Of a stretch of 27,009 nucleotides of DNA, positions 11,086 to 14,859 are shown one piece after another. Numbering within the stretch: position 1 is the stretch's first letter; each line of letters begins with the position of its first letter. A program made the position numbers and the translations under genes. Source of the DNA: a candidate division WOR-3 bacterium (GTDB lineage Bacteria > Hydrothermota > Hydrothermia > LBFQ01); contig JALUCS010000117.1 of the NCBI GenBank assembly GCA_027050205.1, positions 1 through 27,009 of the forward strand. Reading direction: 5' to 3'. The notes under the pieces are model-generated. The model was not told the DNA's origin, searched no databases, and saw nothing but the letters and a program-made list of their open reading frames with translations.

Positions 11086-11117
11086 GCAGGTAGCGTGGGG
11101 AAGTGAGGCGACGAAAT
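11086..11117. repeat. 3' arm of the perfect 32-bp inverted repeat enclosing the 23S rRNA (helix 1 plus processing stem)
   Basis: GCAGGTAGCGTGGGGAAGTGAGGCGACGAAAT is the exact reverse complement of 14828-14859. Confidence 0.95.
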
Positions 11118-11249
11118 CCTCGGGCTATTGGAACCGCTCGGCTCAACCCCTTGCGGGGCTTACACCTGCGGCCCATCTACCGGGTAGTCTCCCCGGGCCC
11201 TTACTCCAGAGTCCGAAGACTCTGGATGGGACGCCTTATCTTGGGGTCC

Positions 11250-11280
<31 letters not shown>

Positions 11281-12086
11281 GGTTAGGCACGTGGCTACCC
11301 GGCTTCTGCCGCTGGCGCGACAGCCGGTACACCAGAGGTGCCCCCAACCCTGGTCCTCTCGTACTGAGGGCAGCTCCCCTCAAGCGTCCCACGCCCACGG
11401 CGGATAGGGACCGACCTGTCTTACGACGGTCTGAACCCAGCTCACGTAGCCCTTTAATGGGCGAACAGACCAACCCTTGGGAGCTTGTTCACCCCCAGGA
11501 TGGGCTGAGCCGACATCGAGGTGCCGAACCGGGCCGTCGAAGTGGACTCTCGGGCCCGACTAGCCTGTTATCCCCGGGGTACCCTTTATCCGCTGAGCGA
11601 TGGCCCTTCCACACGGGACCACCTGATCACTAGGCCCCGCTTTCGCGTCTGCTCGGCCTGTCGGCCTCGCAGTCAGGCCCCCTTCTGCCCTTGCACTCAA
11701 CGGGCGGTACCGTCCGCCCTGAGGGGACCTTTGGGCTCCTCCGTTACCCTTTAGGAGGACGCCGCCCCAGCGAGACTGCCCACCAAGCGCTGTCCCCGCG
11801 AGGGTTTGCCTCGCTAGGTTAGGACCCCAACAGGACAAGGGTGGTATCTCACTGGCGGCTCCACCCGGGCTGGCGCCCGGGCTTCACAGCCTCCCACCTA
11901 TTCTGCACATGCCCTGCCAGGGCCCAACGCCAGGCTGCAGTAAGGGTCCACGGGGTCTTTCTGTCCCGCCGCGGGTAGCCAGCATCTTCACTGGCACTGA
12001 AGCTTCGCCGGGTCCCTCCCTGAGACAGTGGCCCAGTCGTTACGCCATTCATGCGGGTCACAACTTACGTGACAAGGAACTTCGCT

Positions 12087-12802
12087 CACCTTTCTCCACG
12101 GCTTTCACCGTGGGGTGGACCGTCCCTTCAGTCTGGCCCACGGTCCGCCTGTGGGAAGCGTCCCTTTATCTCCTCCCTTATGCGGAGGAGAGCGTCTCTC
12201 TTTTGGGTGTTCATCCGCAGTGCTATATCTATTATGTGCAAGAGGCCTTCGGGTGTCAGGTGTTGTCCCTCGGCCATCTTATGGACTATCCGCCGGAAGC
12301 GGATGAAGTCCACGTTCTTCTTGGTCTTGAGGGGATGGCGGGTGAAGAAGTCGCACACCTGCTGCAGGCATGCGAGCTTCCTTATCCTGAAGGCCCACCT
12401 GTCCCCATCACTTCTGCGGACGACACCGCAGCGGAAGAACCGCTTCAGGGCGTAGAGGATCTGGATATCCCTCTCGTGCTGGACGATTACGAACTCGGGT
12501 ATGACCTGGTACCCGAGCGAGGTCTTGGGGTTGCGTACCACCGATACGTGGAAGCAGCCCTCGCCGTCGGTGAAGCCGACGACCCAATCCGGAGTCAGAT
12601 CCATTTACTTACCTCCTTGTCGCTTCCCACGGGCCAGACTGCCCGGCGTACGGCCTCTGAGGATCCCCTCCCGCCTATTGGCGGGAAAGTTTCCTGCGGG
12701 TTGCCCAATCCCGACCATTTTTACGCCAGCCCTGTGGCTGGAAACGTAGGCCGGGCTCTAAGGGCTTTCCCGCATACAGCCGGGTTCAGGCAGCGGTCAG
12801 CT
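12087..12802 (-). mobile_element. Group I intron in 23S rRNA at E. coli position 1931 (716 nt)
   Basis: Interrupts CCTAAGGT^AGCGAA; 5' exon ends in U and the intron ends in G. P1 AGGU-AGC/GCU-GCCU has the U-G wobble at the splice site; guide CGCU can pair with 3' exon AGCG (P10); P7-like GGCCGU/ACGGUC; long P8 (12627-12641 with 12129-12143) encloses the ORF. Confidence 0.95.
12128..12604 (-). CDS. Intron-encoded single-motif LAGLIDADG homing endonuclease
   Basis: WVVGFTDGEGCF motif, FVIVQ, FFRCG, HPLKTKKNVDF, HLTPEGL; own SD AAGGAGGT inside the intron. Confidence 0.95.
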   Translation of the reverse strand: MDLTPDWVVGFTDGEGCFHVSVVRNPKTSLGYQVIPEFVIVQHERDIQILYALKRFFRCGVVRRSDGDRWAFRIRKLACLQQVCDFFTRHPLKTKKNVDFIRFRRIVHKMAEGQHLTPEGLLHIIDIALRMNTQKRDALLRIREEIKGRFPQADRGPD

Positions 12803-13097
12803 ACCTTAGGACCGTTAGGTTTACGGCCGTCGTTTACCGGGGCTTCGGCAGGGAGCTTGCACCCCCCGCCTTGACCTTCCGGCACCGGACAGGCGTCGCC
12901 CCCTATACCTCCCCTTACGGGTTGTGCAGGGAGCTGTGTTTTTGGTAAACAGTCGCCAGGCCCTATTCTCTGCGACCCACCCCAGCTCCTCCCGCGAGGG
13001 GATTCACCGGGGTGGGCCCCCCTTCTCCCGAAGTTACGGGGGCAACTTGCCGAGTTCCTTAGGGAGGGTTAACCCGCGCCCCTTAGCACGTTGCGTG

Positions 13098-13132
<35 letters not shown>

Positions 13133-13635
13133 GGCGCTTCAACGCCCGCGAGGTTATTTCTCGTCGGTGTGCTCCGGGCCCTTCCCCCGGCCCGAAGGCC
13201 GGAGTTCCTTACTCCCCCTCAGGCTCGGGGCCGGGATTTGCCTCGGCCCGTCATCGCCCTACGGGTTTGGAGGGGGTATTCCATCACCCCCCGGGCCCTT
13301 CGCTCCCGCGTCACCCCTCGGGCTCCACGCCGGTGGCGGGGGACTGTTGACCCCACTTCCCATCGGCTACGCCTTTCGGCCTCGCCTTAGGGACCGGCTG
13401 ACCCACCGCGGACGAACCTGCCGGTGGAAACCTTGGGCGTACGGGGAGGGGGATTCTCACCCCCTTAATCGCTACTGATGCCCGGATTCTCACTTGCCAG
13501 GCGCGACGCCTGGCAACGCTCCCCTACCGCTGCTGGCGACCGAAGGTCGCCAACAACCCGCAGCTTCGGCGGCCGGCTTGAGCCCCGTTAAATTTTCGGC
13601 GCGGAGGCGCTCGGCTGGTGAGCTATTACGCACTC

Positions 13636-13668
<33 letters not shown>

Positions 13669-14579
13669 AGCTGTCACAGCGCCTCCACCTCCTTTACCAC
13701 TTAGCCGGCACTTGGGGGCCTTAGCTGGCGGTCTGGGTTGTTTCCCTCCTCGGACGCGGAGCTTATCCCCCGCGCCCTCACTCCCGGGCTGTCGGGGAGC
13801 CGAGGCTCCCCTACCCTACGGGTATTCGGAGTTTGTCGGGGTTCGGAGTTGCCCCCTAGCCCCAACAGTGCTCTACCCCCCGTAGGGACCACCCGAGGCT
13901 GCACCTAGATGCATTTCGGGGAGAACCAGCTATCACCGGGTTCGATTAGCTTTTCACTCCTACCCACAGGTCATCCGAGGGCATTTCACCGCCCACCGGT
14001 TCGGGCCTCCAGCGGGTGTTACCCCGCCTTCACCCTGCCCATGGGTAGCTCACCCGGCTTCGGGTCTGCCGCCGCCGACTAAGTCGCCCTATTCGGACTC
14101 GGTTTCCCTACGGCTGCGCCCCAGAGGGGCTTAGCCTCGCCGACGACGGCAAGTCCCGGGCTCATTTTTCAATAGGCACCCCGTCACCCCACCACCCGAA
14201 GGTGGCGGAGCTCCGAGTTGTTGTAGGCGACAGGTTTCAGGTTCTCTTTCACCCCCCTTCCCGGGGTGCTTTTCACCTTTCCCTCACGGTACTGGTGCGC
14301 TATCGGTCAGGGGGTAGTATTTAGCCTTGGGCGGTGGTCCGCCCGGATTCCCACAGGGTTCCACGTGCCCCGTGGTACTCGGGGTCGTAGCCCCGGGAGA
14401 CCGTTCCCTTTCGCCTACGGGGCTGTCACCCTCTATGGCCGGCCTTTCCAGACCGTTCGGCTAGAGAACGGTTTTGTAACTCCCTGAGGGGTCTGGGGCC
14501 CCCTCCGGCTACGCCCCACTACCCCGCTCCTACCAACGCCCCCAGGCTTTAACGGTAGGAGCGGTTTAGGCTCCTCCCC

Positions 14580-14618
<39 letters not shown>

Positions 14619-14827
14619 TTTCCTCCGGGTACTGAGATGTTTCACTTCCCCGGGTGTCGCCTCGGCACGCCTTTCGGCGCGCCGATGACCCGCTATTAAG
14701 CGGGCCGGGTTTCCCCATTCGGGCATCCCGGGATCACAGCCATTTTGCGGCTCCCCCGGGCTTTTCGCAGCTTTACACGCCCTTCATCGCCTCCCCCTGC
14801 CGAGGCATCCACCTGTCGCCCTTACTA

Positions 14828-14859
14828 ATTTCGTCGCCTCACTTCCCCACGCTACCTGC
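14828..14859. repeat. 5' arm of the 32-bp inverted repeat enclosing the 23S rRNA
   Basis: Exact reverse complement of 11086-11117. Confidence 0.95.

Follow-up and report, generated by a model that had tools for sequence, protein, structure and literature searches.

The 27-kb window analyzed here (the whole stretch of DNA, 27,009 nucleotides) belongs to the source assembly of an uncultured vent bacterium (G000; 2.05 Mb in 135 contigs, 93.5% complete) and contains a 23S ribosomal RNA (rRNA) gene with one intron and a noncanonical helix 69 (H69) loop. H69 contacts the A-site and P-site transfer RNAs (tRNAs), helix 44 (h44) of 16S rRNA, release and recycling factors, and several antibiotics. The loop found here is a new natural variant of this well-known structure. 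The explanation that we prefer, and consider probable although far from certain, is that the gene yields a single, expressed, and spliced 23S rRNA whose H69 loop diverged by ordinary lineage-specific rRNA evolution at positions tolerant of change, and not in response to the intron.

The variant states were located by numbering the gene against the 23S rRNA of Escherichia coli (L204) and by comparison with Rfam (Table 1). Every state listed by the first-pass annotation (the loop, helix 71 [H71], G1938, and the U1836-A1904 pair) was present. The loop, GUAAACCUAAC, runs from 12824 to 12814 on the minus strand, with A1914 at 12820, C1915 at 12819, and C1916 at 12818. Thus, no uridine is left at the m3-pseudouridine (m3Psi) 1915 site, whose removal had been claimed, and both U1911 and U1917 are kept. 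The Rfam consensus has capital letters at CUA, at the 1836/1904 letters, at A1938, and at CGG/CCG of H71, and it scores the changes at 1836-1904 and 1948-1958 as compatible pairs. The predicted H69 hairpin is unchanged, at -6.4 kcal/mol in all variants, and the predicted H71 hairpin is kept (-5.6 kcal/mol for the variant versus -7.1 kcal/mol for the canonical sequence).

Table 1. Coordinates in the window of the 23S rRNA gene, its intron, and its variant positions (E. coli numbering for rRNA positions)
Feature	Position	Strand	Basis or remark
23S rRNA gene, one intron inside	11108-14835	minus	RF02541, 2460.6 bits, full-length (model 1-2925 of 2925)
Helix 69 (E. coli 1906-1924)	12810..12828	minus	canonical stem; loop GUAAACCUAAC
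Loop 1914-1916 = A, C, C (canonical C, U, A)	12818..12820	minus	sequence versus E. coli numbering
A1904, pairs with U1836; canonical G-C changed to A-U	12830	minus	common to all five family genomes read
U1836, pairs with A1904	12889	minus	E. coli-numbered alignment
G1938 (canonical A), 7 nt 3' of the intron insertion site	12080	minus	E. coli-numbered alignment, Rfam consensus
Helix 71 GUCAC-GUAAGUU-GUGAC, two compensated pairs (1948-1958 A-U, 1949-1957 C-G)	12057..12073	minus	alignment, Rfam
Probable group I intron, 716 nt, after U1931	12087..12802	minus	RF00028, 33.6 bits; RNA contig skips exactly 716 nt
Intron open reading frame, 158 aa, single-motif LAGLIDADG homing endonuclease (predicted)	12128..12604	minus	PF00961, 87.9 bits, one stretch

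For a metagenome-assembled genome, in which rRNA genes are often misbinned, a chimeric or misassembled rRNA contig or a pseudogene has to be considered, all the more because G003, a genome of the same genus, contains two fragments with the canonical CUA loop. However, the gene matches the model over its full length inside a 27-kb contig, and it was the only match when the whole genome was searched with RF02541. In G002, another species of the genus, the exons are identical to those of G000 and the intron is 96.4% identical. DNA and RNA contigs from independent studies agree as well. A DNA contig (X6) had 0 differences over 12790-12960, and a 686-nt contig from an RNA library (X16; depth, 290.6) had 0 differences over 12800-12960. 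The two G003 fragments were treated as foreign because they are only 68 to 80% identical to the window and the genome is 7% contaminated. An artefact of this kind therefore seems to us practically out of the question.

The X16 RNA contig joins 12800 straight to 12083, skipping 716 nt, and its loose end continues into the exon with G1938 and the variant H71. A 140-nt RNA contig from a second study (X15) had 1 difference over 12800-12929, and its loose end likewise runs into the G1938 exon. Assembled contigs of this sort attest to presence, not level, and an intron-less DNA allele in an RNA library is still possible; the simplest reading is a mature spliced rRNA with all the variant states. The first-pass annotation had regarded the gene as functional on account of its compensated changes and had named lack of read support as a ground for doubt. 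Its view gains from the single 23S copy, the compensated stem changes, and the spliced variant contigs in two RNA libraries, and the states recur in both DNA and RNA contigs of independent studies.

The distribution of the loop was surveyed with a pattern that reads position 1904 together with 1914 to 1916, and 126 of the 272 genomes of the phylum were readable in this way. Hereafter, f1 is the host family, with G002 and G003 in the host genus and G007, G008, and G011 in its sister genus, and f2 is the sister family of the order. CUC was found in 70 of the readable genomes and CUA in 51, with CCC in 3 and ACC in 2. CCC was limited to the sister genus (G007, G008, and G011) and ACC to the host genus (G000 and G002), and all five of these genomes have A1904. 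Thus, within the phylum, U1915C is confined to the family and C1914A to the genus, and C1916 is the majority state. The sister family had CUA in 4 of 4 genomes. G1938 also occurs in the intron-less G007 and in genomes of family f5. The H71 stem was noncanonical in 37 of 136 readable genomes, from at least six lineages. In short, positions 1914 and 1915 are rarely changed, and C1916 and swaps in the H71 stem are commonplace in the phylum. The description of these positions as near-universal, and the accompanying caution that the states might be widespread, thus divide by position: 1914 and 1915 stand as described, with changes restricted to genus and family, and 1916, H71, and the f5-shared G1938 do not. 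The alternative of a lineage-specific ribosome interface, which had been offered alongside escape from endonucleases, is supported by these limited distributions, CCC marking the family and ACC the genus.

Outside the phylum, CUA was found in all 41 readable genomes of a Bacillota sample (151 genomes searched). In Bacteroidota, 0 of 251 genomes had a non-A base at 1916, by a pattern that leaves the readable genes uncounted and hence provides no denominator. A search of genome contigs with the pattern GCCGTAANVNTAACGGTC gives no frequency, since 117 of the 119 matches listed were chance matches outside rRNA, but it yielded G272 (L139, G272:C1:385-404), a 1.0-Mb metagenome-assembled genome recorded as Dehalococcoidia. 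This unrelated genome has an independent CCC loop, an A-U pair at 1836-1904, and CC at 1939-1940. Among 121 of its relatives, 38 were readable, and these comprised 34 CUA, 3 CUC, and 1 CCC. In metagenome contigs, at least 82 loci had a base other than U at 1915; of the 80 parsed, 70 were CAA or CGA on short, otherwise canonical contigs (L205-L284). We infer that these are reverse-transcription misreads at m3Psi1915 in metatranscriptome assemblies and not genomic variants. If so, such misreads would be a free marker of the modification.

The divergence of the loop has to be seen against that of the whole rRNA. Conserved 23S positions were defined as those at which E. coli and no fewer than 13 of 14 class relatives have the same base, and 16S positions were defined alike. 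By this measure, G000 differs at 44 of 1,205 conserved positions in 23S rRNA and at 37 of 943 in 16S rRNA, many of them in compensated pairs; the pairs 921/1396 and 928/1389, both swapped, are among the 16S changes. Divergence is general, at about 4%, and is sharpest in the stretch from 1825 to 1965. The first-pass annotation had proposed looking for covariation in 16S h44, and here the result was negative: the bridge partners in h44, h45, and h24 showed no covariation in the 16S rRNAs compared, which came from seven genomes of the family and 12 relatives in the class. Positions 784, 785, 794, 1408 to 1410, 1418 to 1419, 1482 to 1483, 1491 to 1495, and 1516 to 1519 were identical throughout.

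Mutants of E. coli H69 suggest which loop positions can change. In the available part of the study of these mutants (PMC1190176), C1914A and Psi1915C had no clear phenotype, except that poly(U) translation was twofold lower for 1915C; severe effects were seen with A1912G, Psi1917C, and A1919G, and A1916G was defective. Set against this part of the record, natural change is limited to 1916 and the positions with milder effects, and the severe ones are all kept. The following course of events would fit. C1915 and C1916 would have arisen in the family, with A1914 in addition in the host genus. The loop would presumably keep working because A1912, A1913, U1917, A1918, and A1919, residues at which mutation is severe in E. 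coli, are retained. The changes in H71 and at 1836-1904 would be neutral, compensated stem substitutions.

The position of the changes also brings a drug-binding site to mind. In thermorubin structures, as described in the available part of PMC9841432, the drug has nucleotide 1915 stacked against it, with C1914 flipped out and A1913 in a rearranged position. The changes found here fall exactly on 1914 to 1916. Natural products binding between H69 and h44 (thermorubin-like or tuberactinomycin-like) might have selected for the changes at 1914 and 1915 in the bridge B2a drug pocket. However, 16S h44 is unchanged, stacking may work equally well on C as on U, and there is no evidence of such compounds in the habitat and no resistance data for the substitutions. 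This reading is speculation, and we consider it very improbable.

The intron is probably of a type already described, namely, an L1931 group I intron that encodes a LAGLIDADG protein with a single motif. The RF00028 match covers the whole model (1-253), but its 33.6 bits fall short of the gathering score (50). U is the last base of the 5' exon and G that of the intron, as expected of a group I intron at L1931; the boundary has a 3-nt ambiguity (AGC). The best solved relative of the intron-encoded protein was PDB 5gkk_A (E = 2.3e-60); a literature search on 5GKK turned up no paper. Intron identities were 96.4% within the genus, 85.6% within the sister genus (G011-G008), about 75.6% between the genera, and about 64% to f7, and the intron tree matches host taxonomy. 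These values would fit vertical descent with a loss in G007. Vertical descent has been reported for the L1931 introns of Thermotoga and cyanobacteria in the part of PMC1995217 available.

The loop variant proved independent of the intron. The intron is present in G000, G002, G008, and G011 and missing from G007, yet the CCC loop, U1836-A1904, and G1938 are all present there. The expectation that the variant states track the intron thus failed: intron-plus and intron-minus relatives share the loop. L1931 introns also occur in genomes with the CUC loop (G106, G127, G131, G154, and G182).

Escape from homing was the other hypothesis of the first-pass annotation. In this reading, the changes in the loop and H71 were selected as poor targets for the endonucleases and introns of L1917 and the H71 site that circulate in the class. 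Several intron sites do lie within a stretch of about 40 nt in 23S domain IV of class relatives, among them L1931, which is occupied in many genomes. L1917-type introns were found in G030 (L017/L294), G031 (L019), G038 (L018), G044 (L292), and G224; introns after about 1923/1924 were found in G040 (L023) and G051 (L293), and one lies inside the H71 loop of G014 (L016). G030 holds two introns. Positions 1914 to 1916 adjoin the L1917 site, and no family genome read contains an L1917 intron. By our reading, the 5' guide of the L1917 intron is complementary to exon positions 1909 to 1917, so the variant loop would mismatch P1, which keeps the idea coherent. However, the finding that all 5 L1917-bearing genomes of 272 have CUA (CTA in the gene) is circular, because the search pattern itself included the guide, which is complementary to the canonical loop.

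Other evidence also speaks against escape. The variants occur alongside the resident L1931 intron, and the intron-less G007 has the same loop. A footprint of roughly 22 bp centered on L1931 would leave out the variants; the loop is 15 to 17 nt and H71 17 to 27 nt from the site. A1916C fills a 68-genome clade that still holds L1931 introns, and in family f10 a variant H71 occurs in intron-less genes. Moreover, a self-splicing intron probably costs its host little, so selection for resistance would be weak. The intron tree agrees with host taxonomy, and the divergence of about 4% throughout the rRNA would account for the changes without special selection. Endonuclease escape was thus not supported, and we consider it improbable.

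The loss of the modification site brought in the enzymes that act on it, whose genes the first-pass annotation had suggested looking for. RlmH (PF02590) had 0 matches in G000 and 0 in the 11 other genomes of family f1, so that it was not found in any of 12 family genomes, and all 7 genomes searched in the sister family f2 have it. An RluD-like gene is present in G000. It scored 264 bits with NF008385 (RluD), its best specific model, below the equivalog cut-off of 351, and 290.7 bits with the TIGR00005 subfamily model, above the cut-off of 192.7. As for synteny, of the two flanks of the f2 rlmH gene, one matches another G000 contig at 42% identity, and the second was not found. Across the phylum, RlmH exceeded the curated cut-off in 26 of 272 genomes, and all 13 of these with a readable loop have CUA; it was absent from all 75 variant-loop genomes. 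None of the 121 genomes in the G272 group had an RlmH match, and 4 of the 38 readable loops there are variant. In every case examined, the 1915/1916 loop variants occurred only where RlmH was missing.

With C at 1915, neither pseudouridine nor m3-pseudouridine is possible, and RlmH would be without a substrate. The losses of RlmH and of its 1915 target are probably linked, in either order. One may go further and suppose that RlmH, or the m3Psi1915 that it makes, freezes 1915 to 1916 across bacteria and that after its loss the surface facing the A-site tRNA and bridge B2a is free to evolve. We put this forward only tentatively and hold it to be unlikely. If it is true, decoding, recycling, or drug binding may have changed in RlmH-less lineages.

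Several points weigh against ordinary lineage-specific evolution as the explanation. First, the 1825-1965 stretch is enriched in changes, with 10 of 95 conserved positions changed versus 34 of 1,110 elsewhere (P = 0.0015, for a stretch chosen post hoc). This enrichment could come from selection on the interface and not from drift. Second, the association between RlmH and the loop reflects about three independent origins and, with so few events, has no statistical weight. CUA is kept in 39 of the 114 RlmH-negative readable phylum genomes; since many RlmH-less families keep it, loss of RlmH would be at most permissive. Third, A1916G was defective in E. coli (PMC1190176, available part), so that tolerance of C1916 is suggested only by its natural frequency. 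Finally, the H71 variant is found in G000, G002, and G011, and H71 is canonical in G007 and G008, a distribution not accounted for by simple vertical descent.

This patchiness may come from recombination between rRNA alleles. G011 (L170) shares four derived compensated pairs with G000 against G007 and G008, at 1474/1475, 1948-1958, 1949-1957, and 2398/2418, and about 13 other sites tie it to its own genus; its rRNA gene may be a mosaic. H71 and some neighboring sites might thus have moved between family members by rRNA gene conversion, possibly along with intron homing, given that H71 is only 17 to 27 nt from the intron. Among 20 class genes, H71 variants occurred only in intron-bearing ones, yet the intron-less f10 genes of G049 and G052 have a similar variant. 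Because of these genes, and because the G011 intron is of the sister-genus type, coconversion of H71 with introns as a rule was rejected. The G011 intron is nearer to that of G008 (85.6%) than to that of G000 (75.6%), so H71 did not travel with it. In addition, the shared sites lie dispersed, not in a single tract, and the H69 loop is left unaddressed. We therefore regard exon coconversion or gene conversion of this kind as improbable too, and ordinary lineage-specific evolution as the better account of the loop.

Some further features of the rRNA genes were observed. No 16S or 5S rRNA gene was found within the 27-kb window around the 23S gene, and the 16S rRNA gene of G000 is on a separate contig (C12:4414-5985, L164), so that the rRNA genes appear unlinked. 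The final 84 nt of the 16S gene are repeated at 100% identity on another contig (G000:C17:5546-5629), with similar extra copies in G007 and G010. All family 23S genes read lack E. coli positions 1212 to 1215 and 1232 to 1237, ten positions that are conserved elsewhere; a helix of domain II thus appears to be shortened. The family 16S rRNAs have U1396 (921/1396 changed to A-U), A-U at 928/1389, C1390, and A1532. The usual GYACACACCGCCCGT stretch, which we take to be the site of common "universal" reverse primers, is absent from all seven family 16S sequences; for this reason, the family may be underdetected in amplicon surveys.

The H69 loop and Psi1915 are treated as conserved or "ubiquitous" in the available parts of PMC3973299 and PMC4014445. 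Our literature search, partial in coverage, found no description of natural H69 variants of this kind. With C1915, the loop loses a modification site to which ubiquity is often ascribed, and across an entire phylum C1916 prevails over A1916. Ribosomes that have these bases and A1914, and that are natural and expressed, could serve as probes for the loop residues that are required, for the role of m3Psi1915 and RlmH, and for any dependence on the changed bases of drugs that bind bridge B2a.

Compared with known L1931 introns, as far as the available part of PMC1995217 describes them, the present intron has the same insertion site and likewise appears to have descended vertically within its clade. 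Its size (716 nt, with a 158-aa endonuclease) compares with 654 to 700 nt and 143 to 167 aa in that source. It differs in its host phylum and in its exons, which have the noncanonical G1938 and H71.

Compared with H69 of E. coli, in which RluD and RlmH give Psi1911, m3Psi1915, and Psi1917, the variant has the same 19-nt hairpin, the same stem, and the same U1911, A1912, A1913, U1917, A1918, and A1919, and an RluD-like synthase is encoded in the genome. It differs in having ACC in place of CUA at 1914 to 1916, in the lack of a 1915 uridine, and in that RlmH was not found in G000 or the family. Two of its three natural changes, C1914A and Psi1915C, were nearly silent as E. coli mutants in the available part of Liiv et al. 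(2005; PMC1190176). Here, they are joined with A1916C in the only rRNA allele of a wild lineage, whereas at 1916 the same part of that source has only A1916G, which was defective. The closest natural counterpart is the CUC loop of the phylum, which shares both C1916 and the absence of RlmH; those 70 genomes keep C1914 and U1915, whereas 1915 is changed only in the host family and 1914 only in the host genus.

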